Notes: generated by a model from the sequence alone, not told the origin. A stretch of 64,000 nucleotides of DNA from Owenia fusiformis (GCA_903813345.2 CAIIXF020000001.1:24800001-24864000), one strand, 5' to 3'. Numbered from the stretch's first letter, positions 1-59,578 are shown. Translations and numbers: made by a program.

Positions 1-3000
1 TGACACAACAACAGTGGCTGACGCAACTACGGCAGATACTACAGCAGCTGATGCTACAAGTACAGTGGCTGACACAACTACAGCTGATGCTACAGCAACA
101 GTTACTGATGCAACAACGGCTGATGTTACAACAACAGTTGCTGACACAACTACAGAGGTTGACTCAACTACGGCAGATACTACAGCAGCTGATGCTACAA
201 CTACAGTGGCTGACACAACTGCAGCTGATGCTACAACAACAGTTGCTGATGCAACATCGGCTGATGTTACAACAACAGTAGCTGACATAACTACAGTGGC
301 TGATGCAACTACGGCAGATACTACAGCAGCTGATGCTACAACTACAGTGGCTGACACAACTGCAGCTGATGCTACAACTACAGTGGCTGACACAACTGCA
401 GCTGATGCTACAACAACAGTTGCTGATGCAACAACGCCTGATGTTACAACAACAGTTTCTGACACAACTACAGTGGCTGATGCAACTACGGCAGATACTA
501 CAGCAGCTGATGCTACAACTACAGTGGCTGACACAACTACAGCTGATGCTACAACAGCAGTTGCTGATGCAACAACGGCTGATGTTACAACAACACTATC
601 TGACACAACTACAGTGGCTGACGCAACTACGGCAGATACTACAGCAGCTGATAATACAACTACAGTGCCTGACACAACTACAGCTGATGCTACAACAACA
701 GTTGCTGATGCAACAACGGCTGATGATACAACAACAGTAGCTGACACAACTACAGTGGCTGACGCAACTACGGCAGATACTACAGCAGCTGATGCTACAA
801 CTACAGTGGCTGACACAACTACAGCTGATGCTACAACAACAGTTGCTGATGCAACAACGGCTGATGTTACAACAACAGTTGCTGACACAACTACAGAGGT
901 TGACGCAACTACGGCAGATACTATAGCAGCTGATGCTACAACTACAGTGGCTGACACAACTGCAGCTGATGCTACAACAACAGTTGCTGATGCAACAACG
1001 GCTGACACTACAACTACAGTGGTTGACACAACTGCAGCTGATGCTACAACAACAGTTGCTGATGGAACAACGGCTGATGTTACAACAACAGTTGCTGACA
1101 CAACTACAGTGGCTGACGCAACTACTGCAGATACTACAGCAGCTGATGCTACAACTACAGTGGCTGACACACCTACAGCTGATGCTACAACAACAGTTGC
1201 TGATGCAACAACGGCTGATGTTACAACAACAGTTGCTGACACAACAACAGTGGCTGACGCAACTACGGCAGATACTACAGCAGCTGATGCTACAAGTACA
1301 GTGGCTGACACAACTACAGCTGATGCTACAGCAACAGTTACTGATGCAACAACGGCTGATGTTACAACAACAGTTGCTGACACAACAACAGTGGCTGACG
1401 CAACTACGGCAGATACTACAGCAGCTGATGCTACAAGTACAGTGGCTGACACAACTACAGCTGATGCTACAGCAACAGTTACTGATGCAACAACGGCTGA
1501 TGTTACAACAACAGTTGCTGACACAACAACAGTTGCTGACACAACTACAGTGGCTGACGCAACTACGGCAGATACTACAGCAGCTGATGCTACAAGTACA
1601 GTTGCTGACACAACTACAGCTGATGCTACAACAACAGTTGCTGATGCAACAACTGCTGATGTTACAACAACAGTAGCTGATACAACTACAGTCACTAACA
1701 CAAATACGGCAGTTACTACAGCAGCTGATGCTACAACTACAGTGGATGACACAACTACAGCTGATGCTAGAACAACAGTTGCTGATGCAACAACGGCTGA
1801 TGTTACAACAACAGTAGCTGACACAACTACAGTGGCTGACGCAACTACGGCAGATACTACAGCAGCTGATGCTACAACTACAGTGGTTGACACAACTGCA
1901 GCTGATGCTACAACAACAGTTGCTGATGCAACAACGGCTGATGTTGCAAAAACAGTAGATGACATAACTACAGTGGCTGACGCAACTACGGCAGATACTA
2001 CAGCAGCTGTTGCTACAACTACAGCAGCTGATGCTACAACTAAAGTGGCTGACACAACTGTAGCTGATGCTACAACAACAGTTGCTGATGCAACAACGGC
2101 TGGTGTTACAACAACAGTTGCTGACACAACTACAGTGGCTGACGCAACTACGGCAGATACTACAGCAGCTGATGCTACAACTACAGTGGCTGACACAACT
2201 ACAGCTGATGCTACAACAACAGTTGCTGATGCAACAACGGCTGATGTTACAACAACAGTAGCTTACACAACTACAGTGGCTGACGCAACTACGGCAGATA
2301 CTACAGCAGCTGATGCTACAACTACAGTGGCTGACACAACTACAGCTGATGCTACAACAACAGTTGCTGATGCAACAACGGCTGATGTTACAACAACAGT
2401 AGCTGACACAACTACAGTGGCTGATGCGACTACGGCAGATCCTACAGAAGCTGATGCTACAACTACAGTGGCTGACACAACTACAGCTGATGCTACAACA
2501 ACAGTTGCTGATGCAACAACGGCTGATGTTACAACAACAGTAGCTGACACAACTACAGTGGCTGATGCAACTTCGGCAGATACAACAGCAGCTGATGCTA
2601 CAACTACAGTGGCTGACACAACTACAGCTGATGCTACAACAACAGTTGCTGATGCAACAACGGCTGATGTTACAACAACACTTGCTGACACAACTAAAGT
2701 GGCTGATGCAACTACGGCAGATACTACAGCAGCTGATGCTACAACTACAGTGGCTGACACAACTACAGCTGATGCTACAACAACAGTTGCTGATGCAACA
2801 ACGGCTGATGCTACAACAACAGTTGGTGACACAACTACAGAGGCTGACGCAACTACGGCAGATACTACAGCAGCTGATGCTACAAGTACAGTGGCAGACA
2901 CAACTACAGCTGATGCTACAGCAACAGTTGCTGGTGCAACAACGGCTGATGTTACAACAACAGTAGCTGACACAACTATAGTGGCTGACGCAACTACGGC

Positions 3001-6000
3001 AGATAATACAGCAGCTGATGCTACAACTACAGTGGCTGACACAACTGCAGCTGATGCTACAACAACAGTTGCTGATGCAACAACGGCTGATGTTACAACA
3101 ACAGTTGCTGACACAACTACAGTGGCTGACGCAACTACGGCAGATACTACAGCAGCTGATGCTACATCTACAGTGGCTGACACAACTGCAGCTGATGCTA
3201 CAACAACAGTGGCTGACACAACTACAGTGGCTGACGCAACTACGGTAGATACTACAGCAGCTGATGCTACAACTACAGTGGCTGACACAACTGCAGCTGA
3301 TGCTACAACAACAGTTGCTGATGCAACAACGGCTGATGTTACAACAGTTGCTGAAACAACTACAGTGGCTGACGCAACTACGGCAGATACTACAGCAGCT
3401 GATGCTACAATTACAGTGGCTGACACTACTACAGCTGATGCTACAACAACTGTTGCTGATGCAACAACGGCTGATGTTACAACAACAGTTGCTGACAGAA
3501 CAACGGTGGCTGACGCAACTACGGCAGATACTACAGCAGCTGATGCTACAATTACAGTGGCTGACACAACTACAGCTGATGCTACAACAACAGTTGCTGA
3601 TGCAACAACGGCTGATGTTACAACAACAGTTGCTGACACAACTACAGTGGCTGACGCAACTACGGCAGATACTACAGCAGCTGATGCTACAAGAACTGTG
3701 GTTGACACAATTACAGCTGATGCTACAGCAACAGTTGCTGATGCAACAACGGTGGATGCTACAACAACAGTTGCTGATGCAACAATGGCTGATGTTACAA
3801 CAGCAGTAGCTGACACAACTACAGTGGCTGTCGCAACTACGGCAGATACTACAGCAGCTGATGCTACAACTACAGTGGCTGACACAACTGCAGCTGATGC
3901 TACAACAACAGTTGCTGATGCAACAACGGCTGATGTTACAACAACAGTAGCTGACACAACTACAGTGGCTGACGCAACTTCGGCAGATACAACAGCAGCT
4001 GATGCTACAACTACAGTGGCTGACACAACTACAGCTGATTCTACAACAACAGTTGCTGATTCAACAACGGCTGATGTTACAACAACAGTAGCTGACATAA
4101 CTACAGTGGCTGACGCAACTACGGCAGATACTACAGCAGCTGTTGCTACAACTACAGCAGCTGATGCTACAACTACAGTGGCTGACACAACTGCAGCTGA
4201 AGCTACAACAACAGTTGCTGATGCAACAACGGCTGATGCTACAACAACAGTTGCTGACACAACTACAGTGGCTGACGCAACTACGGCAGATACTACAGCA
4301 GCTGATGCTACAACTACAGTGGCTGACACAACTACAGCTGATGCTACAACAACAGTTGCTGATGCAACAACGGCTGATGTTACAACAACAGTTGCTGACA
4401 CAACTACAGAGGTTGACGCAACTACGGCAGATACTATAGCAGCTGATGCTACAACTACAGTGGCTGACACAACTGCAGCTGATGCTACAACAACAGTTGC
4501 TGATGCAACAACGGCTGATGCTACAACAACAGTTGCTGACACAACAACAGAGGCTGACGCAACTACGGCAGATACTACATCAGCTGATGCTACAACTACA
4601 GTGGCTGACACAACTGTAGCAGATTATACAACAACAGTTGCTGATGCAACAACGGCTGATGTTACAACAACAGTTGCTGACACAACTACAGTGGCTGACG
4701 CAACTACGGCAGATACTACAGCAGCTGATGCTACAAGTACTGTGGCTGACACAACTACAGTGGCTGATGCAACTACGGCAGATACTACAGCAGCTGATGC
4801 TACAACTACAGTGACTGACACAACTACCGCTGATGATACAGCAACAGTTGCTGATTCAACAACGGCTGATGTTACAACAACAGTAGCTGACATAACTACA
4901 GTGGCTGACGCAACTACGGCAGATACTACAGCAGCTGTTGCTACAACTACAGCAGCTGATGCTACAACTACAGTGGCTGACACAACTACAGCTGATGCTA
5001 CAACAACAGTTGCTGATGCAACAACGGCTGATGTTACAACAACAGTTGCTGACACAACTACAGTGGTTGACGCAACTACGGCAGATACTACAGCAGCTGA
5101 TGCTACAACTACAGTGGCTGACACAACTGCAGCTGATGCTACAACAACAGTTGCTGATGCAACAACGGCTGATGTTACAACAACAGTAGCTGACACAACT
5201 ACAGTGGCTGACGCAACTACGGCAGATACTACAGCAGCTGATGCTACAACTACAGTGGCTGACACAACTTCAGCTGATGCTACAACAACAGTTGCTGATG
5301 CAACAACGGCTGATGTTACAACAACAGTAGCTGACACAACTACAGTGGCAGACGCAACTACGGCAGATACTACAGCAGCTGATGCTACAACTACAGTGGC
5401 TGACACAACTACAGCTGATGCTACAACAACAGTTGCTGATGCAACAACGGTTGATGTTACAACAACAGTTGCTGACACAACTACAGAGGTTGACTCAACT
5501 ACGGCAGATACTACAGCAGCTGATGCTACAACTACAGTGGCTGACACAACTGCAGCTGATGCTACAACAACAGTTGCTGATGCAACAACGGCTGATGTTA
5601 CAACAACAGTAGCTTACACAACTACAGTGGCTGACGCAACTACGGCAGATACTACAGCAGCTGATGCTACAATTACAGTGGCTGACACAACTACAGCTGA
5701 TGCTACAACAACAGTTGCTGATGCAACAACGGCTGATGTTACAACAACAGTAGCTGACACAACTACAGTGGCAGACGCAACTACGGCAGATACTACAGCA
5801 GCTGATGCTACAACTACAGTGGCTGACACAACTACAGCTGATGCTACAACAACAGTTGCTGATGCAACAACGGTTGATGTTACAACAACAGTTGCTGACA
5901 CAACTACAGAGGTTGACTCAACTACGGCAGATACTACAGCAGCTGATGCTACAACTACAGTGGCTGACACAACTGCAGCTGATGCTACAACAACAGTTGC

Positions 6001-9000
6001 TGATGCAACAACGGCTGATGTAACAACAACAGTAGCTTACACAACTACAGTGGCTGACGCAACTACGGCAGATACTACAGCAGCTGATGCTACAATTACA
6101 GTGGCTGACACAACTACAGCTGATGCTACAACAACAGTTGCTGATGCAACAACGGCTGATGTTACAACAACAGTTGCTGACACAACTACAGTGGCTGACG
6201 CAACTACGGCAGATACTACAGCAGCTGATGCTACAAGTACTGTGGCTGACACAACTACAGCTGATGCTACAGCAACAGTTGCTGATGCAACAACGGCTGA
6301 TGCTACAACAACAGTTGCTGATGCAACAATGGCTGATGTTACAACAACAGTAGCTGACACAACTACAGTGGCTGTCGCAACTACGGCAGATACTACAGCA
6401 GCTGATGCTACAACTACAGTGGCTGACACAACTGCAGCTGATGCTACAACAACAGTTGCTGATGCAACAACGGCTGATGTTACAACAACAGTAGCTGACA
6501 CAACTACAGTGGCTGACCCAACTTCGGCAGATACAACAGCAGCTGATGCTACAACTACAGTGGCTGACACAACTACAGCTGATTCTATTACAACAGTTGT
6601 TGATTCAACAACGGCTGATGTTACAACAACAGTAGCTGACATAACTACAGTGGCTGACGCAACTACGGCAGATACTACAGCAGCTGTTGCTACAACTACA
6701 GCAGCTGGTGCTACAACTACAGTGGCTGACACAACTGCAGCTGAAGCTACAACAGTTGCTGATGCAACAACGGCTGACGCAACTACGGCAGATACTACAG
6801 CAGCTGATGCTACAAGTACTGTGGCTGACACAACTACAGTGGCTGACGCAACTACGGCAGATACTACAGCAGCTGATGCTACAACTACAGTGACTGACAC
6901 AACTACCGCTGATGATACAGCAACAGTTGCTGATTCAACAACGGCTGATGTTACAACAACTGTAGCTGACATAACTACAGTGGCTGACGCAACTATGGCA
7001 GATACTACAGCAGCTGTTGCTACAACTACAGCAGCTGATGCTACAACTACAGTGGCTGACACAACTACAGCTGATGCTACAACAACAGTTGCTGATGCAA
7101 CAACGGCTGATGTTACAACCACAGTTGCTGACACAACTACAGTGGTTGACGCAACTACGGCAGATACTACAGCAGCTGATGCTACAACTACATTGGCTGA
7201 CACAACTGCAGCTGATGCTACAACAACAGTTGCTGATGCAACATCGGCTGATGTTACAACAACAGTAGCTGACATAACTAAAGTGGCTGATGCAACTACG
7301 GCAGATACTACAGCAGCTGATGCTACAACTACAGTGGCTGACACAACTGCAGCTGATGCTACAACTACAGTGGCTGGCACAATTGCAGCTGATGCTACAA
7401 CAACAGTTGCTGATGCAACAACGCCTGATGTTACAACAACAGTTTCTGACACAACTACAGTGGCTGATGCAACTACGGCAGATACTACAGCAGCTGATGC
7501 TACAACTACAGTGGCTGACACAACTACAGCTGATGCTACAACAACAATTGCTGATGCAACAACGGCTGATGTTACAACAACAGTAGCTGACACAACTACA
7601 GTGGCTGACGCAACTACGGCAGATACTACAGCAGCTGATAATACAACTACAGTGGCTGACACAACTACAGCTGATGCTACAACAACAGTTGCTAATGCAA
7701 CAACGGCTGATGATACAACAACAGTAGCTGACACAACTACAGTAGCTGACGCAACTACGGCAGATACTACAGCAGCTGATGCTACAACTACAGTGGCTGA
7801 CACAACTACAGCTGATGCTACAACAACAGTTGCTGATGCAACAACGGCTGATGTTACAACAACAGTTGCTGACACAACTACAGAGGTTGACGCAACTACG
7901 GTAGATACTATAGCAGCTGATGCTACAACTACAGTGGCTGACACAACTGCAGCTGATGCTACAACAACAGTTGCTGATGCAACAACGGCTGATGCTACAA
8001 CTACAGTGGTTGACACAACTGCAGCTGATGCTACAACAACAGTTGCTGATGGAACAACGGCTGATGTTACAACAACAGTTGCTGACACAACTACAGTGGC
8101 TGAGGCAACTACTGCAGATACTACAGCAGCTGATGCTACAAGTACAGTGGCTGACACAACTGCAGCTGATGCTACAACAACAGTTGCTGATGCAACAACG
8201 GCTGATGTTACAACAACAGTGGCTGACACAACTACAGTGGCTGACGCAACTACGGCAGATAGGTCAGCAGCTGATAATACAACTACAGTGGCTGACACAA
8301 CTACAGCTGATGCTACAACAACAGTTGCTGATGCAACAACGGCTGATGTTACAACAACAGTAGCAGACACAACTACAGTGGCTGACGCAACTACGGCAGA
8401 TACTACAGCAGCTGATGCTACAACTACAGTGGCTGACACACCTACAGCTGATTTTACAACAACAGTTGCTGATGCAACAACGGCTGATGTTACAACAACA
8501 GTTGCTGACACAACAACCGTGGCTGACGCAACTACGGCAGATACTACAGCAGCTGATGCTACAAGTACAGTGGCCGACACAACTACAGCTGATGCTACAG
8601 CAACAGTTACTGGTGCAACAACGGCTGATGTTACAACAACAGTTGCTGACACAACTACAGTGGCTGACGCAACTACGGCAGATACTACAGCAGCTGATGC
8701 TACAAGTACAGTTGCTGACACAACTACAGCTGATGCTACAACAACAGTTGCTGATGCAACAACGGCTGATGTTACAACAACAGTAGCTGACATAACTACA
8801 GTGGCTGACGCAACTACGGCAGATACTACAGCAGCTGTTGCTACAACTACAGCAGCTGACACACCTACAGCTGATGCTACAACAACAGTTGCTGATGCAA
8901 CAACGGCTGATGCTACAACAACAGTTGGTGACACAACTACAGAGGCTGATGCAACTACAGCTGATGTTACAACAACAGTTGCTGATGCAACAACGGCTGA

Positions 9001-12000
9001 TGGTACAACAACAGTAGCTGACACAACTACAGAGGCTGATGCAACTACAGCTGATGCTACAACAACAGTTGCTGATGCAACAACGGCTGATGTTACAACA
9101 ACAGTTGGTGACACAACTACAGTGGCTGACGCAACTACGGCAGATACTACAGCAGCTGATGGTACAAGTACAGTGGCTGACACAACTACAGCTGATGCTA
9201 CAGCAACAGTTGCTGCTGCAACAACGGCTGATGTTACAACAACTGTTGCTGACACAACTACAGTGGCTGACGCAAGTACGGCAGATACTACAGCAGCTGA
9301 TGCTACAACTACAGTGGCTGACACAACTGCAGGTGATGCTACAACAACAGTTGCTGACACAACTACAGTGGCTGACACAACTACGGCAGATACTACAGCA
9401 GCTGATGCTACAATTACATTGGCTGACACAACAACAGCTGATGCTACAATTACAGTTGCTGATGCAACAACGGCTGATGTTACAACAACAGTTGCTGACA
9501 CAACTACAGTGGCTGACGCAACTACGGCAGATACTACAGCAGCTGAAGCTACAAGTACAGAGGCTGACACAACTTCAGCTGATGTTACAGCAACAGGTGC
9601 TGGTGCAACTACGGCTGATGTTACAACAACAGTAGCTGACACAACTACAGTGGCTGATGCGACTACGGCAGATACTACAGCAGCTGATGCTACAAGTACA
9701 GTTGCTGACACACCTACAGTGGCTGACTCAACTACGGCAGATACTACAGCAGCTGATGCTACAACTACAGTGGCTGACAAAACTGCAGCTGATGCTACAA
9801 CAACAGTTGCTGATGTAACAACGGCTGATGTTACAAAAACAGTTGCTGACACAACTACAGTGGCTGACGCAACTACGGCAGACACTACAGCAGCTGATGC
9901 TACAAGTACAGTGGCTGACACAACTACAGCTGATACTACAACAACAGTTGCTGATGCAACAACGGCTGATGTTACAACAACAGTAGCTGACACAGCTACA
10001 GTGGCTGATGCGACTTCGGCAGATACTACAGCAGCTGATGCTACAACTACAGTGGCTGACACAACTACAGCTGATGCTACAACAACAGTTGCTGATGCAA
10101 CAACGGCTGATGTTACAAGAACAGTTGCTGACACAACTCCAGTGGCTGACACAACTACGGCAGATACTACAGCAGCTGATGCTACAACTACAGCAGCTGA
10201 TGCTACAACTACAGTGGCTGACACAACTGCAGCTGATGCTACAACAACAGTTGCTGATGCAACAACGGCTGATGTTACAACAACAGTAGCAGACACAACT
10301 ACAGTGGCCGACGCAACTACAGCAGATACTGCAGAAGCTGATGCTACAACTACAGTGGCTGACACACCTACAGCTGATGCTACAACAACAGTTGCTGATG
10401 CAACAACGGCTGATGTTACAACAACAGTAGCTGACATAACTACAGTGGCTGACGCAACTACGGCAGATACTACAGCAGCTGTTGCTACAACTACAGCAGC
10501 TGATGCTACAACTACAGTGGCTGACACAACTGCAGCTGATGCTACAACAACAGTTGCTGATGCAACAACGGCTGATGCTACAACAACAGTTGCTGACACA
10601 ACAACAGAGGCTGACGCAACTACGGCAGATACTACAGCAGCTGATGCTACAACTACAGTGGCTGACACAACTAAAGCTGATGCTACAGCAACAGTTGCTG
10701 ATGCAACAACGGCTGATGTTACAACAACAGTAGCTGACATAACTACAGTGGCTGACGCAACTACGGCAGATACTACAGCAGCTGATGCTACAACTACAGT
10801 GGCTGACACAACTGCAGCTGATGCTACAACTACAGTGGCTGACACAACTGCAGCTGATGCTACAACAACAGTTGCTGACACAACTACAGTGGTTGACGCA
10901 ACTACGGCAGATATTACAGCAGCTGATGCTACAACTACAGTGGCTGACACAACTGCAGCTGATGCTACAACAACAGTTGCTGATGCAACAACGGCTGATG
11001 TTACAACAACAGTAGCTGACACAACTACAGTGGCTGACGCAACTACGGCAGATACTACAGCAGCTGATGCTACAACTACAGTGGCTGACACAACTGCAGC
11101 TGATGCTACAACAACAGTTGCTGATGCAACAACGGCTGATGTTACAACAACAGTAGCTGACACAACTACAGTGGCTGACGCAACTACGGCAGATACTACA
11201 GCAGCTGATGCTACAACTACAGTGGCTGACACAACTTCAGCTGATGCTACAACAACAGTTGCTGATGCAACAACGGCTGATGTTACAACAACAGTAGCTG
11301 ACACAACTACAGTGGCAGACGCAACTACGGCAGATACTACAGCAGATGATGCTACAACTACAGTGGCTGACACAAATACAGCTGATGCTACAACAACAGT
11401 TGCTGATGCAACAACGGCTGATGTTACAACAACAGTTGCTGACACAACTACAGTGGCTGACGCAACTACGGCAGATACTACAGCAGCTGATGCTACAAGT
11501 ACTGTGGCTGACACAACTACAGCTGATGCTACAGCAACAGTTGCTGATGCAACAACGGCTGATGCTACAACAACAGTTGCTGATGCAACAATGGATGATG
11601 TTACAACAACAGTAGCTGACACAACTACAGTGACTGTCGCAACTACGGCAGATACTACAGCAGCTGATGCTACAACTACAGTGGCTGACACAACTGCAGC
11701 TGATGCTACAACAACAGTTGCTGATGCAACAACGGCTGATGTTACAACAACAGTAGCTGACACAACTACAGTGGCTGACGCAACTTCGGCAGATACAACA
11801 GCAGCTGATGCTACAACTACAGTGGCTGACACAACTACAGCTGATTCTACAACAACAGTTGCTGATTCAACAACGGCTGATGTTACAACAACAGTAGCTG
11901 ACATAACTACAGTGGCTGACGCAACTACGGCAGATACTACAGCAGCTGTTGCTACAACTACAACAGCTGATGCTACAACTACAGTGGCTGACACAACTGC

Positions 12001-27000: not shown

Positions 27001-30000
27001 AAGTACAGTGGCTGACACAACTACAGCCGGTGCTACAACAACAGTTGCTAATGCAACAACGGCTGATGTTACAAAAACAGTTGCTGACACAACTACAGTG
27101 GCTGACGCAACTACGGCAGATACTACAGCAGCTGATGCTACAAGTACAGTGGCTGACACAACTGCAGCTGACGCTACAACAACAGTTGCTGATGCAACAA
27201 CTGCTGATGTTACAACAACAGTAGCTGACAAAATTACAGTGGCTGAAGCAACTACGGCAGATACTACAGCAGCTGATGCTACAACAACAGTGGCTGACGC
27301 AACTACGGCAGATACTACAGCAGTTGAGGCTACAAGTACAGTGGCTGACACAAATACAGCTGATACTTCAACAACAGTTGCTGATGCAACAACGGCTGAT
27401 GTTACAACAACAGTAGCTGACACAACTACAGTGACTGACGCAACTACGGCAGATACTACAGCACCTGATGCTACAACTACAGTGGCTGACACAACTACAG
27501 CTGATGCTTCAACAACAGTTGCTGATGAAACAATGGCTGATGTTACAACAACACTTGCTGTCACAACTACAGTGGCTGAAGCAACTACGGCAGATACTAT
27601 AGCAGCTGATGCTACAAGTACTGTGGCTGACACAACTACAGCTGATGCTACAACAACATTTGCTGATGCAACAACGGCTCATGTTACAACAACAGTAGCT
27701 GACACAACTACAGTGGCTGACGCAACTACGGCAGATACTACAGCAGCTGATGCTACAACTACAGTGGATGACACAACTACAGCTGATACTACAACAACAA
27801 TTGCTGATGCAACAACAGCTGATGTTACAACAACAGTTGCTGACACAACTACAGTGGCTGAAGCAACTACGGCAGATACTACAGCAGCTGATGTTACAAC
27901 AACAGTTGCTGATGCAACAACGGCTGATGTTACAACAACAGTTGCTGACACAACTACAGTGGCTGACGCAACTACGGCAGATACTACAGCAGTTGATGCT
28001 ACAACTACAGTGGATGACACAACAGTTGCTGATGCAACTATAGTGGCTGACGCAACTACTGCAGATACTACAGCAGTTGATGCTACAACTACAGTGGCTG
28101 ACACAACTACAGCTGATGCTACAACAACAGTTGCTGATGCAAGAACGGCTGATGTTACTTCAACAGCAGCTGACACAACTACAGTGGCTGACGCAACTAC
28201 GGAAGATACTACAGCAACTGATGCTACAAGTACAGTGGCTGACACAACTACAGCTGATGTTACAACAACAGTTGCTGATGCAACAACGGCTGATGTTACA
28301 ACAACAGTTGCTGACACAACTACAGTGGCTGACGCAACTACGGCAGATACTACAGCAGTTGATGCTACAAATACAGTGGATGACACAACTACAGCTGATG
28401 CTACAACAACAGTTGCTGATGCAACTATAGTGGCTGACTCAACTACGGCAGATAATACAGCAGTTGATGCTACAACTACAGTGGCTGACACAACTACAGC
28501 TGATGCTACAACAACAGTTGCTGAAGCAAGAACGGCTGATGTTACTTCAACAGCAGCTGACACAACTACAGTGGCTGACACAACTACGGAAGATACTACA
28601 GCAACTGATGCTACAACTACAGTGGCTGAAACAACTACAGCTGATGCTACAACAACAGTTGCTGATGCAGCAACGGCTGATGTTACAACAGCAGTTGCTG
28701 ACACTACTACAGTGGCTGACGCAACTACGGCAGATATTACAGCAGCTGTTGCTAAAATTACAGTGGCTGACACAACTACAGCTGATGCTACAACAACAGT
28801 TGCTGATGCAACAACGGCTGATGTAACAACAACAGTTGCTGACACAACTACAGTGGCTGACGCAACTACGGCAGATACTACAGCAGCTGATGCTACAAGT
28901 ACAGTGGCTGACACAACTGCAGCTGACGCTACAACAACAGTTGCTGATGCAACAACTGCTGATGTTACAACAGCAGTAGCTGACAAAACTACAGTGGCTG
29001 AAGCAACTACGGCAGATACTACAGCAGCTGATGCTACAACAATAGTGGCTTACGCAACTACGGCAGATACTACAGCAGTTGAAGCTACAAGTACAGTGGC
29101 TGACACAATTACAGCTGATACTACAACAACAGTTGCTGATGCAACAACGGCTGATGTTACAACAACAGTAGCTGACACAACTACAGTGACTGATGCAACT
29201 ACGGCAGATACTAGAGCAGCTGATGCTACAACTACAGTGGCTGACACAACTACAGCTGATGCTACAACAACAGTGGCTGATGCAAGAACGGCTGATGTTA
29301 CTTCAACAGCAGCTGACACAACTACAGTGGCTGACGCAACTACGGCAGATACTACAGCAGCTGATGTTACAACAACAGTTGCTGATGCAACAACGGCTGA
29401 TGTTACAACAACAGTTGCTGACACAACTACAGTGGCTGGCGCAACTACGGCAGATACTACAGCAGTTGATGCTACAACTACAGTATATGACACAACAGTT
29501 GCTGATGCAACTATAGTGGCTGACGCAACTACTGCAGATACTACAGCAGTTGATGCTACAACTACAGTGGCTGACACAACTACAGCTGATGCTACAACAA
29601 CAGTTGCTGATGCAAGAACGGCTGATGTTACTTCAACAGCAGCTGACACAACTACAGTGGCTGGCGCAACTACGGAAGATACTACAGCAACTGATGCTAC
29701 AAGTACAGTGGCTGACACAACTACAGCTGATGCTACAACAACAGTTGCTGATGCAACAACGGCTGGTGTAACAACAACAGTAGCTGACACAACTACAGTG
29801 GCTGACGCAACTACGGCAGATACTACAGCAGCTGATGCTACAAGTAAAGTGGCTGACACAACTACAGCTGATGCTGCAACAACAGTTGCTGATGCAACAA
29901 CGGCTGATGTTACAACAACAGTTGCTGACACAACTACAGTGGCTGACGCAACTACGGCAGATACTACAGCAGTTGTTGCTACAACTACAGTGGATGACAC

Positions 30001-31330
30001 AACTACAGCTGATGCTACAACAACAGTTGCTGATGCCCCAACGGCTGATGTTACAACAACAGTTGCTGACACAACTACAGTGGCTGACAAAACCACGGCA
30101 GATACTACAGCAGCTGATGCTACAAGTACAGTGGCTGACACAACTACAGCTGATGCTACAACAACAGTTGCTGATGCAATAACGGCTGAAGTTACAACAA
30201 CTACGGCTGATGCTACAACAACAACCATTGCTGATGCAACAACGGCTGATGCTACAACAACAGTTGCTGACACAACTACAGTGGCTGACGCAACTACGAC
30301 AGATATTACAGCAGCTGATGCCACAACTATAGTTGCTTACACAACTACAGCTTATGCAACAACTGCAACAACAGTTGCTGATGCAACAACAGCTGTTGTT
30401 AAAACGACAGCTGCTGAGACAACTACATTGCATGACATAACAACGGCAGATTCTACAGCAGCTAATGATGCAACTACAGTGGCTGTCACAACTACAGCTG
30501 ATGCTACAACAACAGTTGCTGATGCAGCAACAGCTGATGTTACAACATCAGTTGGTGACACAACTACAGTGGCTGACACAACTACAGCTGATGCTACAAC
30601 TTCAGTTGCTGATGCAGCAACAGCTAATGTTACAACAACAATTGCTGACACAACTACAGTTCCTGACGCATTTACAGCTTATGCGACAACAACAGTTGCT
30701 GATGTAACAACATCTGATGTTACGACATTGAAAGATAGTACTGATGTTTCAGCAACAGTTGCTGATACAGCAACAGTTGCTAATGCAACAACGGCTGATG
30801 TTACAGCAACAGTAGCTGACACGACTACAGTGGCTAACGCAACTACGGCATATACAGCAGCTGATGCTACAACTTCAGTGGCTGACAGATCTACAATTGA
30901 TGCTACAACAACAGTTACTGAAGGAACCACGGCTGAAGTTACAACAACATTAGCTGACACAACTACAGTGGCTGCAACAACTACGGCAGATACTACAGGA
31001 GCTGATACTAAAGCTACAATTGCTGATACAACTACAACTAATGGTACAACAGCTGCTTATGCAACAACGGCTGAAGTTACAACAATAGTTGCTGACACAA
31101 CTACAGAAGATGTCACGTCTACGGCAGATACTACAGGAGCTGATACTAAAGCTACAGTTGCTGATACAACTACAACTAATGGTACAACAGCTGCTTATGC
31201 AACAACGGCTGAAGTTACAACAATAGTTGCTGACACAACTACAGAAGATGTCACGTCTACGGCAGATACTACAGCAGCTGGTGCTACAACTTCAATGGAT
31301 GACACAGCTAAAATGTCTGACGCAACTACG
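1..31330 (+). repeat. Coding tandem array, 141-bp / 47-aa unit ADTTTV-ADATT-ADTTA-ADATTTV-ADTTT-ADATTTV-ADATT-ADVTTTV, roughly 215-220 unit equivalents
   Basis: Periodicity read directly from the DNA and protein. Consensus unit is 21 T, 13 A, 8 D, 5 V. Units degenerate progressively from about 23.5 kb and strongly after about 30.2 kb. Confidence 0.97.
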
Positions 31331-31609
31331 ACAATCCTTTATGCAACAACAGTTGTTGATACTATTACCCCAATTTCAACTGCAGTTGCTGATAGAACAA
31401 CCACTGAAACAACAACAATTGGTGATTCAGCAAGCCCTGGTTTAACAGTTATGGATACCACTACCACTCATACTACAACCGAAGTATCCCGATTGATAGG
31501 AGTAATCCGTATTACTCATTATAATGGCTATACTGCCATGTTCAATTCCAGCCTTAGTAATGTATCAACGCCATTTTACCAAGGTTTACAAGCTGAAACT
31601 TGCCTTGAG
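2..31609 (+). CDS. Giant coding exon (5'-partial) of a transmembrane mucin: Thr/Ala/Asp/Val tandem repeat followed by the N-terminal half of SEA domain 1
   Basis: Stop-free frame from the window start. It ends ...RLIGVIRITHYNGYTAMFNSSLSNVSTPFYQGLQAETCLE at donor GAG|gtaaat (31609/31610, phase 0). The 'M' at position 14 is an internal GTG, not a start codon. Confidence 0.92.
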
Positions 31610-32032
31610 GTAAATGTTATTATTACTTTAAATACATGGTACTATATTTTAATTAGTTATATTACACAGTTTATATGATGATGATGTAAATACAGAAACA
31701 AAAGTGCACATATAAAAGTACGATACTTGAAATATTTAATTAACATTGGAAAGAGACGATAGACTATAATAAATATCCTAATTATTTTCACAGGACAACA
31801 TTTGACATTGCACTTTGCAGCACATTTTACAGTTTGATAAGTTACTCTAAATTATTGAGGCTACTTTCGCTTGAAGAAGACAATGTTTCCGATTCTGAAT
31901 CGTCCTTTTCTTTAGGTTATACATTATAATTATACTGTTTAACGTACAAATCCAAGCCCTTTAGTTTTATATTAACGTGGAAATATTAATAACTACAACA
32001 GCGATTCTACATTTTATTTTCTATCTTTTCAG

Positions 32033-32252
32033 ATTGATACAGCATTTTTGGCTTCATCGTTGGCATCAATGTATATTTCTTGTGAAATTATTGGATTTTC
32101 ATCAGGAAGCATTATTGCGAGCTTTATTTTAACCTTTCAACACAGCACCGATGTTATCATTCACTCGAGCTTGGTCCAGCGTGAACTTAGATCTAGCATT
32201 GCTACAACGACCACAACAGTTGTGTTTGAGGGGCATTCCGCATTAATATCAG
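32033..32252 (+). CDS. Mucin exon: C-terminal half of SEA domain 1
   Basis: Acceptor ttttcag|ATT, donor TCAG|gtaaat. 220 nt, phase 0 to 1. Reads IDTAFLASSLASMYISCEIIGFSSGSIIASFILTF..., which contains a GSII motif. Confidence 0.88.
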
Positions 32253-32594
32253 GTAAATGTCACTATAAATGTTCATTTTAAGCCAAAAAGTATCATTTTT
32301 GTTCACCGTACTTCAGATTCCACGGTAAGTTATTTAATCCAGCCGCGTCCCTTCTAAAACGAGACATGACCAGTTTCAATTTCTATGACATATCAAACCA
32401 TTCTACTATTAGTAACAAGTAATGGAAACCTTTTAACAACACTTGTCAACTTTTTTAAAAGTTTTGATAACGTTTTCATATATATTAGTAATTAACAATT
32501 GAGGAGATGGACTCATAGCAAAAATCGTCCCTTTTCTTGCTAGCTTGGACTGACATAGTGTACTCTGCTATTTCAAACATAAATTATTTTTCAG

Positions 32595-33977
32595 ATATAT
32601 TCACCACTATAGATCCTAAAACGTCGAGTGTAACTGAGTCTACAACAACACCAACAGTAGCTTATATAACTAATAACACATCTATAACACCAACAAGAAC
32701 TACTGCAACATCGACAGTGGCAGGTGCTAATACCGAGTCAGAGTATACTACATCATCAACAATGGCTGGAACATCTATAAATCCATCAACACCAACACAA
32801 ACAGAAGCTGGTTCAACTACTAAGTCTATAACAACAACAAACACGCCTGGTACAACAACAAAGTACATTGCATCACCATCACTGGTTAGTACAACTACTG
32901 AGTCCACTACATTATCAACAGTGAATGGTACATCTCCCGAGTCTACTACATCACCGACAGTGACTGGTTCATCTCCCGGGTCTACTACATCACCGACAGT
33001 GACTGGTACATCTCCTGAGTCTACTACATCACCAACAGTGACTGGTACATCTAGCGAGTCTTCTACATCACCGACAGTGACTGGTACATCTCACAAGTCT
33101 ACAGCATCACCAACAATGACTGGTACATTTCCTGAGTCTACTACATCACCGACAGAGAATGATACATCTACTGCATCTACTACATCACCGAAAGTGACTG
33201 GTTCATCTCCCGAGTCTACTACATCACCAACAGTGACTGGTACATCTACTGAGTCTACTTCATCACCGGCAGTGACTGGTATATTTCCCGAGTCTACTAT
33301 ATCACCGACTGGTACATCTCCAGAGTCTACTACATCTCCCGAGTCTACTACATCACCGATAGTGACTGGTACATCGGCTGAGTCCACTACATCATCAACA
33401 GTGAGAGGTACATCTATCAAGTCTTATACAGCATCAACAGCAACTGGTACATCCACTAAATTTACTACATTATCGAGTGGTACATTTACTGAGGCTACTA
33501 CTTCACCAACAGTGAGTGGTGCAACTGCTAAGTCTTCTGCATCACCCACATTATTCGGTACATCTACTAAACCTACTACAACATCAACAGTGACTGGTAC
33601 ATCCACAAAGGCTTCTACAACATCAACTTTGGGTGGCACATCTGCTGGGTCTACTACGTCACCAACAGTGACAGGTACAGCTACTATAATGTCGACAGTG
33701 GCTGGTACCGTTTCTGAAAATACAAAACTCGGAACTACTTTTAAATCAACATCAATTAAAACTACTGATCCTGTTACTCGAGTGACTCTTCCAGCAACAA
33801 CTCCCAAATCTTTGGCAACAAGTATATCAACACCAAGAGCAACTTCGCCTAGTTCCACTCCTAAACCTTCCATTTGTGCTTCGATGCCCTGCATAAATGG
33901 AGGAAGGTGTGTCTCATTAGAAGACACATATAGATGTGAATGTTTAGTGGGCTTTGGAGGATCAATGTGTGAATATG
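32595..33977 (+). CDS. Mucin exon: second Pro/Thr/Ser-rich region plus EGF-like domain 1
   Basis: Acceptor tttttcag|AT, donor TATG|gtaagt, phase 1-1. Ends with CASMPCINGGRCVSLEDTYRCECLVGFGGSMCE (six-Cys EGF spacing). Confidence 0.9.
32900..33700 (+). repeat. Coding 39-bp / 13-aa tandem repeat (ESTTSPTVTGTSP), degenerating 3'
   Basis: Repeated GAGTCTACTACATCACCGACAGTGACTGGTACATCTCCC-like units. Confidence 0.9.
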
Positions 33978-34127
33978 GTAAGTCTTGTTATAGACGTTTT
34001 TGATGTATTTCAAGGTCTCGACATGTATGTGAACAGTATAAATTCACGCTTATGACGTATGTAGCTTTACCCCTTGCGCTATTAGACAACATGCTGATTC
34101 ATGATGAATTGTGTACTCTATTTTCAG

Positions 34128-34255
34128 CTCTGAACACTTATGAGGGAGAAGTTATTATTTTGAAATACGAAGGAAAAGACGCTGTGTTTACTGAAGAACT
34201 AAACAACCCTGATTCAGATGAGTTTAAAAAGTTAGCAGAAGCCGTGTGCATAGAG
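34128..34255 (+). CDS. Mucin exon: N-terminal half of SEA domain 2
   Basis: Acceptor ttttcag|CT, donor GAG|gtatt, phase 1 to 0. Reads ALNTYEGEVIILKYEGKDAVFTEELNNPDSDEFKKLAEAVCIE, a SEA-type F.EEL.NP.S.EF motif. Confidence 0.9.
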
Positions 34256-34526
34256 GTATTGTCCCGTTTACCAGTAACTTCCCAATCACTTTAAAACGAT
34301 GTTTAGGAATGGTTAAGAAGTTTCGGTCAAATATCGTTCATTATCGTTCATTTAAATGCGTTTCTTAATACAAATGAATTTAAAGAATACACTTTTTGAT
34401 TATAATTATTTAATCAATCGAAAAGTTTTTTCGTCAATAGAAGAACAATGAAAATTATACGATATTGACATCCTTAGTTCGATCTGTATCCAAAAATTAA
34501 TAATTTTTTATTTTCTGTACTCTTAG

Positions 34527-34746
34527 GTGGAAGCCGCTTATAACAAGTCTGAATATTCCTATATCTTCGTTGGTTGCAAGGTAAACTCGTTTTACAATGG
34601 CAGTATTGTAGCTGAATACACTATTGACTTCGAGGAGCAGGTAGAACTTGTATTGAATGCCACTACAGTGTTAGAGGAGATCGAACGTACACTTAACACA
34701 ACGGTGACAGATGTGGAGTTCGATATTGGATCTCTCTATATAAGTG
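34527..34746 (+). CDS. Mucin exon: C-terminal half of SEA domain 2
   Basis: Acceptor tcttag|GTG, donor AGTG|gtatgt. 220 nt, phase 0 to 1. Contains FYNGSIVAEY. Confidence 0.9.
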
Positions 34747-34895
34747 GTATGTTTACATGAAATACTTTTAACACAGTGACGTATTTTGTGTATATTATAA
34801 TCCATTGAATCCTGAACTTTCTGGAATTATGTTTGTGCTTCGTTTATATTAGGTAGAACAAATTTTTTACTTGAAAGTCTTGTTTATTTTGATAG

Positions 34896-35039
34896 ATTTT
34901 GACGAATGCGTATTAAACGATACCAACGACTGCTCCCGTTATGCCTACTGTACCAATACACATGGTAGCTTCACGTGTACATGCAATGATGACTTCAGAG
35001 ATATTCCCAATACAGATAGACCTGGTCGCCTTTGTACAG
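34896..35039 (+). CDS. Mucin exon: calcium-binding EGF domain
   Basis: Acceptor gatag|AT, donor ACAG|gtataa, phase 1-1. Reads DFDECVLNDTNDCSRYAYCTNTHGSFTCTC..., matching the D-x-D-E-C ... C-x-N-x-x-G-S-F-x-C consensus. Confidence 0.92.
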
Positions 35040-35123
35040 GTATAACATTTATTCAATTTGGCTTTATGTTCAATGATTAATTAAGCTTTTCTTACAATCC
35101 AATTTCAGATTCTCAGAGTTTAA

Positions 35124-35345
35124 GGTCAGGGTGCACTTTGATGAAATTCATGACCATGTGCTATTTTCAGATAAACATAACTCATTCCACACATCATCTA
35201 CATCTTTCATTCTTCCCCACAAAAGATGCATTAGTGTACCTAGACTATTAATTGAGGGTTGATAATTCTTCAGAATGTTTTAATAACTAGAATATTCAGT
35301 GGTTTACTTTTCAAAATTGCAAAAAATCCAAAGTGCACTCTGGCC
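35124..35345. mobile_element. Intronic Kolobok-type MITE (222 bp)
   Basis: TTAA|GGTCAGGGTGCACTTTG ... CAAAGTGCACTCTGGCC|TTAA: 15/17 TIR match, purine-purine termini and a TTAA target duplication. Confidence 0.75.
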
Positions 35346-35429
35346 TTAAACAACGCATCATAGAAATTCAAATAATAATTTCTGATATTAGTTTATGTTC
35401 GAAATTTTAAATTTGTTGTTTTCCTTCAG

Positions 35430-36001
35430 AAAAATGCGATAGAACCCGTTGTGAAAATGGTGGCACTTGTCTGGAAAAACTTGGAGGGATACACCTGTGT
35501 AGTTGTCCGAGGGGATACTCTGGTAGAAACTGTGAAACAGTCGAGCCCATAAAAGTTACATCTGAGGTTGTAGTAGCGATTGTTGCTGGAAGTCTTGCCG
35601 TCGTTTTGATAGCTTCTATTGTTGTTATTGCAATTGCACTTGTATTAAGACATCGGGACGGCTACAAGAAGCAATCTGCAGCTGGATCAACGGCGACGTT
35701 CTCACAGCTTGCGTATGGTTCTGATAAATACTCATCAGTTGGCACCATTCGATCTAACATAACCCTACACTCGAGGTCAACATACGGACTTCAACATGCG
35801 CCTGTCAAGCCTTTAACAACATTGACGGGGCTTCCTAACGACTCGTTCAGCAGTATATCACCCATGCGACAACTGCCTCGGATAAACAGGGATATAAACA
35901 ATGCAACGGACAATGACAGGGCGCCAAGTGCGATTTGGTCTGGTATCAACTCTAAGCTATCTGGTTCTGTAACAGGGGACAGTCGCAGTCCCCAAAGTAT
36001 G
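35430..36001 (+). CDS. Mucin exon: EGF domain 3, transmembrane helix (35567-35647) and start of the cytoplasmic tail
   Basis: Acceptor ccttcag|AA, donor ATG|gtaagc, phase 1 to 0. Reads CDRTRCENGGTCLEKLGGIHLCSCPRGYSGRNCE, then VVVAIVAGSLAVVLIASIVVIAIALVL, then basic RHR. Confidence 0.92.
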
Positions 36002-36883
36002 GTAAGCATTACTTTTGGCACCACTGTGTCATTTCCCTAGATAAGTATAGAACCTGCTTGTAAATCCATCATTGATACTGTCTGTTATTCATCATCTTGT
36101 TCAACCATGAAATAAAAAAGTCATTCGAGGTATGATTTTTCAAGAATCAGAATGTGTTTATTGACCATTTATGGCCATGAATGTCGAGAGGATGTGCGAT
36201 GAAAATTGATGGATTCGGCCCAAATGAATAACCGCAACCCGATTTTGATACACGTCTAGCTTTTCATGTAGAAAATGTAGTCCATTCAAAATTTTATTAT
36301 CACGATCATTAATCTTCAATTCAGCAAACATATCACCTATCCAAACAAAACAATATTTTTTCCAGTTATCGATGTCAAGCACATACATCCCTGCTCCTAG
36401 TCTACACAGAGATACATCAATTGAACCACAAATCAGAAAGATGTGGACGGTAAGCTTTGAGTTTATTAATTACGATTCTAGTTAAGACCCGTAATGATGT
36501 GTTCGCGTTAATAGCAATAACAGACTGATATGTTTTACAACCAGATGTTTACAACAAATAATGCAGTACAACTTCATAGTACTCAGATCTTTACAAATAG
36601 CCACTAGTAAGCAATAATCAGTTCCCATTGTGTTCACACATTTTCGAAATTATGTTTATGACCAGACAATTAACACGACTGGTGGTTATGCCCGCAACGT
36701 TTCTAGTTTCATTCATTCATTAAAATCTGTGAACATTAAACTCCATAACACTTTGATATGATATTTTTTCATTTATATATCTGCTTCATACATGTATTTT
36801 GTGTTTCATTATGTGCCCCAATTCATGTATCAATCATTTAGTATTTTCCGATCTTTAAATCAGACCTTGTTTGATTTTTACAG

Positions 36884-36994
36884 GGACGCATGGCAAGAAC
36901 TGATAAACCATGGGACGGAACTAGTCGTTTTGAAGATTTTTCATCAACTTTTTCTGATTCTGGGGCTTCTGGTAACTGGCACACTCGACCAAAT
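36884..36994 (+). CDS. Mucin exon: cytoplasmic tail
   Basis: Acceptor tttttacag|GGA, donor AAT|gtaagt. 111 nt, phase 0-0, open frame GRMARTDKPWDGTSRFEDFSSTFSDSGASGNWHTRPN. Confidence 0.78.
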
Positions 36995-37194
36995 GTAAGT
37001 CATTGAAGTCACGTGACAACATCCATCTCTAAAACTGCCATTAGGACATTATAACATAAAATAGTAGAAGACTGGCACAGTTGGCTTGTTATATATCACG
37101 TTTTCATATCAAATACATGATACACTTTTATACATACCCTGATCCAATTTTGTTTTTCAATTCGTAATTCAACTCACCATCTCTTATATTTCAG

Positions 37195-37314
37195 AATTCC
37201 GAACGGGATATGCGATCGTATCGCACCTATGATGACGTCACGATGCCTAAGTCCACTGTTCCCGAGAATGAAAACAACAATACATTAGATGATATAAATA
37301 TGGACTATTTCTAA
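37195..37314 (+). CDS. Mucin terminal coding exon ending ...DDINMDYF*
   Basis: Acceptor tatttcag|AAT, phase 0. Reads NSERDMRSYRTYDDVTMPKSTVPENENNNTLDDINMDYF, with TAA at 37312-37314. Confidence 0.78.
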   Translation, partial: NSERDMRSYRTYDDVTMPKSTVPENENNNTLDDINMDYF

Positions 37315-59550: not shown

Positions 59551-59578
59551 TGCTTAGGGAGGACGTCCAAAAGAGAAT

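Follow-up and report, generated by a model that had tools for sequence, protein, structure and literature searches.

What kind of gene, if any, lies behind a reading frame that runs for more than 31 kb without a stop, and is still open where the available DNA begins? The DNA in question, the window, is a stretch of 64,000 nucleotides (nt) from Owenia fusiformis (GCA_903813345.2 CAIIXF020000001.1:24800001-24864000, one strand). We consider it likely that the window covers the 3' portion, 37 kb, of a genuine animal gene, and that the product of this gene is a mucin-like type I transmembrane glycoprotein at least 11,529 residues long.

Open frame and exon-intron organization

Read from stop to stop with the standard code, the plus-strand frame that starts at base 2 is free of stops from 2 to 31678 (10,558 codons) and has not closed where the window begins. 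The other two plus frames contain 1,515 and 185 stops across these 31.6 kb, and the minus frames 60, 28 and 1,598. A GT donor is situated at 31610, directly after base 31609, and the stop-free frame from 2 to 31609, open at the window edge, that an earlier note on this DNA had reported is borne out. The open frame, the TRF repeats and the donor delimit the visible part of exon 1 (2..31609, plus strand, like all exons of the model), and its reading as one exon, 31.6 kb long, is a prediction from sequence alone. It comprises a T/A/D/V tandem array (~2-31310), a non-repeat linker, and the N-terminal half of a first SEA module (~31484-31609).

Nine GT-AG exons totaling 2,982 nt follow downstream, and end with TAA at 37312-37314; all nine introns of the model are GT-AG. 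The ten exons, as far as they lie in the window, splice to 34,590 nt, or 11,529 codons, in which the terminal TAA is the sole stop. An AATAAA overlaps this stop codon. The earlier note had counted eight more exons and 2,898 nt; the phase-matched GT-AG introns and the TAA stand, whereas the present model has nine exons and 2,982 nt, probably because the earlier one was without the 84-nt exon at 36366..36449. This has AG/GT borders, an open frame, and phase 0 on both sides, so models with and without it are both in frame; it is a possible further exon of the gene. None of the 22 in-frame Met codons of exon 1 precedes a hydrophobic stretch like that of a signal peptide, and translation of a type I protein must therefore begin farther upstream, and pass through the array.

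The downstream part of the locus recurs in other samples. The stretch 31300-37400 is present in at least 20 runs from six studies of the same organism, and the contigs of run X2 are colinear with the exon-intron layout. Among the single-copy indels that separate the window from run X2, three of the five intronic ones are not multiples of three; the sole exonic indel is 3 nt.

Domains, membrane span and tail

Pfam was run exon by exon, with single exons as queries. Exon 2 (32033..32252; 220 nt), the C-terminal half of SEA module 1, matches SEA above the cut-off (E 1e-7, profile positions 37-100 of 106). Exon 3 (32595..33977) begins with a stretch of 425 aa rich in Pro, Thr and Ser (PTS; T 32.9%, S 20.9%, P 8.7%) and built of repeats of 13 aa, or 39 nt (TRF periods 39 and 117 nt over 32871-33686), and continues into EGF 1 (residues 427-455, ~33875-33961; E 6.8e-9). 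SEA module 2 is divided between exon 4 (34128..34255; N-terminal half, E 0.023, profile positions 11-32) and exon 5 (34527..34746; 220 nt, C-terminal half, E 6.9e-4, profile positions 37-98); each is a half-domain, and below the cut-off when taken alone. Exon 6 (34896..35039) is a calcium-binding EGF (EGF_CA, E 1.5e-8, above the cut-off), and exon 7 (35430..36001) contains a third EGF (E 1.9e-5) and the transmembrane segment (~35567-35647), after which the cytoplasmic tail begins. EGF-like domains thus flank SEA2 on both sides, with one EGF before it and EGF_CA and EGF after.

The two SEA modules resemble each other closely. Exons 2 and 5 align without gaps over 73 aa (E 4e-13), and the N-terminal half at the end of exon 1 aligns with that of exon 4 (E 4e-7). 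Alignable, interrupted by an intron at the same position and in the same phase, and each with a second exon of 220 nt, the modules are by all sequence signs paralogues. A SEA pair that shares intron position, phase and exon size is not expected from chance open frames. SEA1 has the motif G-S-I-I-A (exon 2) and SEA2 G-S-I-V-A (exon 5), and the two coincide in the alignment. Places one to four agree with G|S[V/I]VV, as that motif is given in PMC13643018, and the fifth is Ala.

The hydrophobic run in exon 7 is 27 residues long (best 19-residue Kyte-Doolittle mean 3.15), and is followed directly by a basic stop-transfer stretch, R-H-R-D-G-Y-K-K. The cytoplasmic tail is 222 aa, Ser/Thr-rich, and extends through the 84-nt exon 8, exon 9 (36884..36994, from the exon model) and exon 10 (37195..37314). 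Class I PDZ motifs have the form S/T-x-hydrophobic; the protein ends M-D-Y-F, with Asp rather than Ser/Thr at position -2, and so is not of this class. Taken together, the exon-wise Pfam matches, the PTS composition and the hydrophobic segment uphold the order repeat-SEA-PTS-EGF-SEA-cbEGF-EGF-TM-tail that had been proposed beforehand. Relatives of the gene are another matter. When exon 7 was compared by phmmer with 1.84 billion representatives, 2,035 matches were obtained at E <= 0.001, the best 150 all by way of EGF, and SEA was present in none of the nine longest-coverage matches scanned. No protein resembling the predicted product was found in the collections searched.

Transcription and splice signals

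Three raw RNA runs were sampled (6-12% of each) and mapped from the end of the array, 30701, onward. In two of the three, sparse reads (depth 0.04-2.46) occupy 11 and 12 bins, every one of which contains exon sequence; the five bins with intron only, or with no more than 13 nt of exon, have no reads at all. The reads at the locus are sense-strand, with the first mate always on the minus strand. Exonic coverage totals ~20 reads, and none of the nine splice junctions reached the 3-read threshold for listing. Run X21 has a depth of 0.61 in bin 36301-36524, where the 84-nt exon is the sole exon, and of 0.40 in the exon 9 bin, 36749-36972; the bin containing exon 10 has zero reads, and the third run has nothing outside dispersed repeats.

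Is the array present in the mRNA? The last 450 nt of the mapped array (two bins, 30701-31148) have zero reads in all three runs, and this would suit an explanation that we regard as unlikely, namely that the array is real and in frame, but that the usual mRNA holds much less of it and the protein is far below 11,500 residues. Splicing might join an upstream signal-peptide exon to an acceptor somewhere in the array, or might excise internal stretches. The sites for such splicing are poor. Among the 1,864 YAG sites in the array, none is preceded by eight or more pyrimidines in the 11 bases upstream, and 59 are preceded by seven. The gene's nine modelled acceptors have 7-10, eight of them 8-10, and so those 59 equal only the weakest. 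Nor does any site in the array match GTRAGW, although donor-like GTA sites there might be used because the gene's own modelled donors are themselves weak in consensus (GTAAAT, GTATTG, GTATAA). Against a shortened mRNA, too, the frame is kept over all 31.3 kb to the window edge, something that intronic sequence has no need of, and in the known tethered mucins large repeat exons are as a rule read whole (PMC13643018, PMC13345508). We favor, for these reasons, a giant exon that is read whole here also.

The giant array

The array is dominated by four amino acids: T 41.2% (4,345 of 10,536 residues), A 26.7%, D 16.0% and V 10.5%. S accounts for 1.6% and P for 0.3%, and rare residues for ~5.6%. With so little Pro and Ser, and so much Asp, it is not a classic PTS domain. 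AlphaFold2 returned no confident fold for 500 aa of it (mean pLDDT 40), a result that agrees with disorder but supports it only weakly, and no relatives of the array, or of the tail, were found in the protein collections searched.

Units of 5-7 aa (D-x-T-T-type) are arranged within a 47-aa higher-order repeat, and TRF finds periods of 141, 282 and 423 nt with 77-82% matches. Slippage of 15-, 18- or 21-nt units gives multiples of three with or without selection. The 119 distinct repeat lags in the array are all divisible by three, and not one of 19,284 k-mer lags, or of 432 lag changes, is indivisible by it. The lack of stops is weak evidence by itself, and nearly automatic, because a single substitution can turn just 242 of the 10,536 codons into a stop. 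What is informative is that the array contains no frameshift, and that its open frame runs straight into a SEA domain. Neighboring copies at lag 141 mismatch at codon positions 1, 2 and 3 with frequencies of 6.5%, 8.0% and 6.3%, and their codon differences are synonymous in 373 cases and non-synonymous in 1,118. The near-equality of the three positions gives no indication that purifying selection maintains the identity of residues. It appears that the array evolves by gain and loss of units and by substitution, and that its frame and composition are constrained, but its single residues are not.

Could the array be a non-coding satellite, or the gene a decaying pseudogene, with the frame of a smaller SEA/EGF gene next to the array free of stops across it by mere coincidence? 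We think this very improbable. A codon set nearly immune to stop-creating substitutions, units that keep the frame by construction, equally variable codon positions, and very low expression in the sampled RNA runs are all in its favor. Yet the end of the array shares its exon and its frame with the first half of a genuine SEA domain, the second half of which is in the next exon; an internal start with a signal peptide is absent among the 22 Met codons; the RNA reads are confined to exons and consistent in strand; and no 1- or 2-nt indel survives in 31.3 kb despite hundreds of private substitutions. A coding array, continuous with the gene downstream, accounts for these features better.

The length of the array is a separate matter, for the gene could be real and the array misassembled (expanded, collapsed or mis-joined), in which case 31.6 kb would describe the assembly rather than the organism. 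The window begins inside the array, and within this lies a pair of near-identical copies, 16816-19945 and 19414-22543 (span 16816..22543, plus strand), spaced by 2,598 nt, the commonest distance among repeated 80- to 300-mers. They differ at 38 of 3,130 positions compared (98.8% identity over 3.1 kb), and include a 1.5 kb stretch of identity that rounds to 100%. Such a pair is an error-prone spot for assemblers, and assemblies and lift-overs are known to break mucin repeat exons into segments or to give them the wrong size (PMC13345508). On the other hand, 28,455 of the 31,461 150-mers in the array region (90%) are distinct, so long accurate reads could place the array; together with the 7-23% by which neighboring copies differ, this provides anchors for such reads nearly everywhere. 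Even the near-identical pair retains its 38 differences, and dropping one copy would shorten the array by just 2.6 kb. A serious error of length seems to us quite unlikely, and we take the array to be at least 31.3 kb long.

A proposed mechanism

How might such a protein work? The frame-preserved array would be read unbroken into SEA module 1, and GT-AG splicing would then add the PTS stretch, EGF, SEA module 2, calcium-binding EGF, EGF, membrane span and 222-residue tail. A signal peptide, presumably encoded upstream of the window, would bring the protein into the ER, and the Thr-rich array would there become O-glycosylated. That this glycosylation is dense is an assumption, because the array, in contrast to defined PTS domains, is nearly proline-free and rich in aspartate. 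With ~1,680 net negative charges, the array might form an extended, hydrated, polyanionic brush at the apical cell surface, some 2.6 um long if the chain is extended (10,536 x 0.25 nm). The SEA modules may cleave themselves as they fold and keep the giant outer chain attached by non-covalent contacts; this putative cleavage is suggested by the position of G-S-[I]-[I/V]-A, which is where cleaving mucins have G|S[V/I]VV. By analogy with what has been proposed for MUC1 and MUC17, the outer chain could be shed under mechanical load, while the EGF modules and tail remain with the membrane part, and could signal.

A bolder reading, unlikely in our opinion, is that the array is not a conventional mucin domain at all, but a protein-encoded polyanion in which charge and spacing, rather than or besides glycans, do the work. 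It might form a brush more than 2 um long that binds cations or calcium, is strongly hydrated, or interacts with minerals or particles; two force-sensitive SEA modules in series would tether it, and it would constitute a class of surface polymer distinct from, and independent in origin of, the vertebrate PTS mucins. It draws on the ~one Asp per six residues, the net charge of about -1,680 in the window, and the near lack of proline.

Provided that cells transcribe and translate the array in the form given here, it belongs among the largest coding exons, and its product among the largest proteins, outside the well-studied human mucins. The tethered-mucin design could then be built on a proline-free, acidic repeat of Thr, Ala, Asp and Val. 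Nature would have provided a test of what a mucin brush needs—composition or exact sequence, glycan or backbone charge—and of whether a series of two SEA modules provides staged points of mechanical release. For annotation there is a warning: genes of this kind get missed or truncated.

Comparison with known tethered mucins

Tethered mucins are defined by the possession of one or more Pro-, Thr- and Ser-rich domains (PMC1552070). Such a PTS domain, as in SEA-type tethered mucins, is found here in exon 3, and not in the giant repeat; an extracellular SEA near the membrane, a single membrane span and a cytoplasmic tail are all present. The earlier interpretation as a membrane mucin survives in its layout, which matches MUC17 and its relatives as outlined in PMC13643018, and in the unbroken frame of the repeat; it fails in so far as the giant array is not PTS. 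That coding exons of this size are extremely rare, as was also claimed, is fair, but this one is neither unprecedented nor a record, since human MUC12 alleles range from 4,677 to 23,080 aa, and the longest MUC4 repeat alleles measure 27,843 bp, according to PMC13345508; the exon size range of MUC12 is comparable to that of the giant exon.

MUC3A/3B, MUC12 and MUC17, of human 7q22, have a giant single-exon repeat, EGF-like, SEA, EGF-like, span and tail, in that order, and a SEA with a G|S[V/I]VV-type motif (PMC13643018). The gene here shows the same order of domains after its giant repeat, is predicted to carry this repeat in a single exon, and resembles the motif in the first four places. Theirs is a PTS repeat, whereas the one here consists largely of T/A/D/V, Pro accounting for 0.3% and Ser for 1.6%. 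An extra SEA module separates the array from a distinct PTS stretch, one of the EGF modules is calcium-binding, and the 222-aa tail ends D-Y-F, not the class I PDZ-binding C-terminus that MUC3/12/17 are described as carrying in PMC13643018. Database searches found no sequence similarity to these mucins beyond the common domains.

MUC16 has many SEA repeats. It too combines a giant, degenerate repeat in a very large exon—O-glycosylated in its case—with more than one SEA and a membrane anchor (PMC13345508, PMC9080433), but as characterized in the latter it is without EGF domains, whereas here three EGF modules accompany the two SEA modules. Outside vertebrates, a cnidarian mucin1-like gene (SP-PTS-SEA-TM; Actinia tenebrosa) exemplifies SEA-anchored mucin-like proteins, although the sea-anemone candidates have one SEA and no adjoining EGF (PMC9080433). 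Drosophila Muc14a, which spans 52.6 kb, shows that repeated coding sequence can occupy tens of kb in an invertebrate mucin (bioRxiv 10.1101/834630); a T/A/D/V array is not described for either in the passages cited.

By described layout alone, the order SEA1...SEA2, tandem EGF-like, span, tail of IMPG2 matches the SEA1-PTS-EGF-SEA2-cbEGF-EGF-TM-tail here, with the difference that the gene here has an additional EGF before SEA2. IMPG2, at 1,241 aa, lacks a giant array and is termed vertebrate-specific in PMC10558372. The gene from O. fusiformis is an extreme, yet recognizable, member of the tethered mucins.

An open frame of more than 31 kb

The gene in this region of the Owenia fusiformis contig is probably real, and would encode a giant mucin-like protein of the tethered type. 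Read stop to stop in the standard code, one plus-strand frame meets no stop between base 2 and 31678, a span of 10,558 codons, and continues past the 5' edge of the window; the stop-free frame that the earlier note had described is thus present, with a GT donor directly after 31609. Stops number 1,515 and 185 in the remaining plus frames over the same 31.6 kb, and 60, 28 and 1,598 in the minus frames. Long minus-strand ORFs are also found across 1–31609—up to 2,252 codons (6037–12795)—and since two of the minus frames have only 28 and 60 stops, these ORFs are by-products of the repeat codon set, not evidence of antisense genes.

Most of what is modelled as exon 1 (2–31609 within the window) is a tandem array (about 2–31310 as assembled), whose periods, by Tandem Repeats Finder, are 141, 282 and 423 nt across nearly the whole stretch (77–82% matches), with sub-periods of 15–21 nt. 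The array is composed of T (41.2%), A (26.7%), D (16.0%) and V (10.5%), with little S (1.6%) or P (0.3%); Cys occurs once in the 10,536 residues of the exon reading, and tryptic sites in the array are few. The most frequent Asp-to-Asp units are DATTA (296), DATTTVA (241), DTTAA (184), DVTTTVA (127), DTTTVA (124) and DTTTA (118). Asp recurs once per ~six residues, the net charge of the array is -1,679, and its peptide mass is ~1.0 MDa. Toward the 3' end, where the array is more degenerate, the share of residues outside the T/A/D/V set climbs from ~3% to 18%; degeneration at array boundaries is known for several human mucin repeat arrays too, according to PMC13345508. Pfam finds no family in the array, and Rfam has no match in the whole window. 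AlphaFold2, run without an alignment on 500 aa taken from the array, predicts no confident fold (mean pLDDT 40), which is compatible with disorder and weak evidence for it.

Distinct 150-mers account for 28,455 of the 31,461 in the array, with a local identity of 0.77–0.93 at lag 141; to judge by sequence, the array is therefore degenerate enough for long accurate reads to assemble. Two copies at a spacing of 2,598 nt (16816–19945 and 19414–22543) are the exception: they differ by 38 mismatches in 3,130 positions, and over 1.5 kb their identity rounds to 100%. They are either the product of a recent higher-order duplication or a possible spot of assembly error, and an artefactual copy would mean an array 2.6 kb shorter.

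Could the open frame be due to chance?

Stops, residue identity and reading frame, taken in turn, give a mixed answer. Only 242 of the 10,536 codons are one substitution away from a stop, and a stop-free reading is for that reason weak evidence. Between neighbouring repeat copies, at lag 141, mismatch rates at codon positions 1, 2 and 3 are 6.5%, 8.0% and 6.3%, and codon differences are synonymous in 373 cases and non-synonymous in 1,118. The expected excess of third-position change between copies was not found in this codon-position test; change is nearly equal at the three positions, and thus the residue identity of the array is not conserved.

The reading frame, in contrast to residue identity, is kept. 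Recurrence in the array takes place at 119 distinct lags; none of 19,284 lagged positions, and none of 432 lag changes, is indivisible by 3. Slippage of 15-, 18- or 21-nt units accounts for part of this. Rare private variants make up ~5.6% of array residues, however, and so indels of 1–2 nt should also have built up. Between the window and X2—a sequencing run that acts as DNA, because it is colinear with the introns—three of five indels in single-copy intron sequence are not multiples of 3; the sole exonic indel is 3 nt.

Good splice signals are absent from the array. It contains no GTRAGW donor, and none of its 1,864 YAG sites has at least 8 pyrimidines in the 11 upstream bases (59 have 7); the nine real acceptors of the gene have 7–10. 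Of the 22 in-frame Met codons in exon 1, none precedes a hydrophobic stretch of the signal-peptide type, and the start of a type I membrane protein would therefore have to lie upstream of the window, with translation reading through the array.

Gene model and domains

From the donor after 31609, nine more exons can be chained on the plus strand with AG/GT borders and matching phases: exon 2 (32033–32252), exon 3 (32595–33977), exon 4 (34128–34255), exon 5 (34527–34746), exon 6 (34896–35039), exon 7 (35430–36001), exon 8 (36366–36449), exon 9 (36884–36994) and exon 10 (37195–37314). Together these total 2,982 nt, ending in TAA at 37312–37314, and the full model of 34,590 nt, or 11,529 codons, has only the terminal stop. 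The chain is the one traced in the earlier note; the count there, eight exons and 2,898 nt, is what remains when the 84-nt exon at 36366–36449 is left out. That exon is in phase 0 on both sides, and could therefore be a cassette exon.

The order SEA-PTS-EGF-SEA-cbEGF-EGF-TM-tail, proposed at first sight, agrees with hydrophobicity and with Pfam scans run on single exons, one at a time. All of the features are on the plus strand. SEA is matched in exon 2 (E 1e-7), and again in exon 4 (E 0.023) and exon 5 (E 6.9e-4); EGF is matched at the end of exon 3 (E 6.8e-9) and in exon 7 (E 1.9e-5), and EGF_CA in exon 6 (E 1.5e-8). A canonical PTS stretch of 425 aa, built of 13-aa repeats (T 33%, S 21%, P 8.7%), opens exon 3. 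After the EGF of exon 7 comes a membrane span, a 27-residue hydrophobic run whose best 19-mer has a Kyte-Doolittle mean of 3.15, then R-H-R-D-G-Y-K-K, and then a 222-residue tail rich in Ser, Thr, Arg and Asp. At 33918, in exon 3, X2 has a 3-nt GGG insertion, which would give the first EGF one more Gly; at a depth of 19, this is either a contig error or a length polymorphism that keeps the frame.

The first SEA module (end of exon 1 plus exon 2) and the second (exons 4 and 5) are paralogues. Their second halves align without gaps over 73 residues (26% identity, E 4e-13), and their first halves over 37 residues (E 4e-7). Intron position and phase are identical in the two, and each second-half exon is 220 nt. 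Internal consistency of this kind is hard to get from chance open frames. Both modules carry G-S-I-[I/V]-A. A PDB sequence search with the two second halves returned chance-level matches only (E at least 0.23), and no SEA chain.

Sequencing reads

A run search with 31300–37400 listed 20 holders from 6 studies, all of one coded organism. None of those listed is recorded as RNA, and holders guessed to be RNA, with 0.4–0.67 of the words, may be DNA; X2 is one of these. Three RNA-seq runs with the same species label are available as raw reads (X21, X22 and X23), and 30701–37400 was mapped on these, reading 6–12% of each, and on X2. Reads from X21 and X22 are sparse (depth 0.04–2.46, in 11 and 12 bins), but every bin that has them contains exon sequence, and in every read the first mate is on the minus strand. 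Bins that are intron only, or have at most 13 nt of exon (31597–31820, 31821–32044, 32269–32492, 34285–34508 and 36077–36300), have no reads in any run. X23 has no reads outside dispersed repeats, and the bins at the array end (30701–31148) and exon 10 (37197–37400) are empty in all three RNA runs. In the fraction read, each of the nine predicted junctions stayed below the 3-read threshold. We take these results as weak but consistent support for the view that the 3' exons are spliced and expressed at a low level from the sense strand; they do not bear on the array.

X2 differs from the window at 64 or more places. Among the 40 differences listed, 17 are not exonic and 23 are; all 23 of the latter fall within the PTS stretch of exon 3 (12 synonymous, 11 not).

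High-copy dispersed elements occupy 35120–35326 in intron 6 and about 36525–36748 in intron 8. These are the only sites of heavy RNA depth (8–64x), with both mate orientations and many loose ends into unlike sequence. In X2, summed contig depth reaches 2,700–4,200 over the bins of intron 6 and 114 over the bin of intron 8, versus 10–30 in the flanks. Neither element matches an Rfam family.

Relatives and neighbours

Word-index searches found no relatives of exon 7 among longer proteins (334–2,000 aa), and none of the last 137 residues of exon 1 among proteins of 5,464–17,388 aa. With 500 aa of array against proteins of 275–875 aa (8,000 scored), there was one marginal match, E 7.6e-4, covering 6% of the query. 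A phmmer search of 1.84 billion representatives with exon 7 gave 2,035 matches at E <=0.001, of which the best 150 are multi-EGF proteins matched mainly to query residues 1–45. Eleven of the listed matches reach residue 76 or beyond, and the nine of these that were scanned with Pfam contain no SEA. This search says nothing about orthologues. The ESM Atlas returned EGF clusters only for exon 7.

Further along the window, a 468-codon plus-strand ORF (59558–60964) stands in ORF-poor, AT-rich surroundings, with a shift in GC skew over 56–62 kb. It matches no Pfam family, and the ESM Atlas offers weak leads only (0.79–0.84), some of them gag or Ty3-capsid-like clusters. It may be a decayed retroelement.

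How the protein might work, and what it resembles

Domain order, membrane span, frame-kept array and paralogous SEA pair are the parts already seen; the rest is conjecture on our part. A signal peptide would be encoded upstream of the window. The 4,345 Thr of the array would be O-glycosylated, giving an extended chain, and Asp at every ~six residues would make that chain polyanionic regardless of glycans. A length of 2.6 um is arithmetic. G-S-I-[I/V]-A sits where cleaving mucins have the SEA motif G|S[V/I]VV (PMC13643018), and so self-cleavage during folding is possible. Self-cleaved SEA modules may hold the outer chain non-covalently and let it be shed under force, as has been proposed for MUC1 and MUC17 according to the same review.

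MUC3, MUC12 and MUC17 have their PTS domain in a single exon and a SEA flanked by two EGF-like domains, as that source describes, and from the PTS stretch onward the predicted protein follows their order, PTS-EGF-SEA-EGF-EGF-TM-tail. IMPG2, as outlined in PMC10558372, is alike in the whole C-terminal order, SEA1 ... SEA2-EGF-EGF-TM-tail. Similarity beyond shared domains was not found for exon 7, the end of exon 1 or the array, among the word-index and phmmer matches listed. Points of difference are a giant array that is not PTS, a second SEA module, one EGF that is calcium-binding, and a C-terminus in D-Y-F, versus a class I PDZ motif. MUC4 repeat alleles reach 27,843 bp (PMC13345508), Drosophila Muc14a extends over 52.6 kb and includes repeated coding sequence (bioRxiv 10.1101/834630), and SEA-anchored mucin-like proteins are reported from sea anemones (PMC9080433). 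Set against these, the exon size and the layout, though extreme, belong to a known kind. The membrane-mucin reading of the earlier note is supported in part: gene and layout are most likely of the tethered-mucin kind, and the giant array is acidic and proline-free instead of PTS. What is unusual here is that acidic, proline-free repeat, together with the doubled SEA module.
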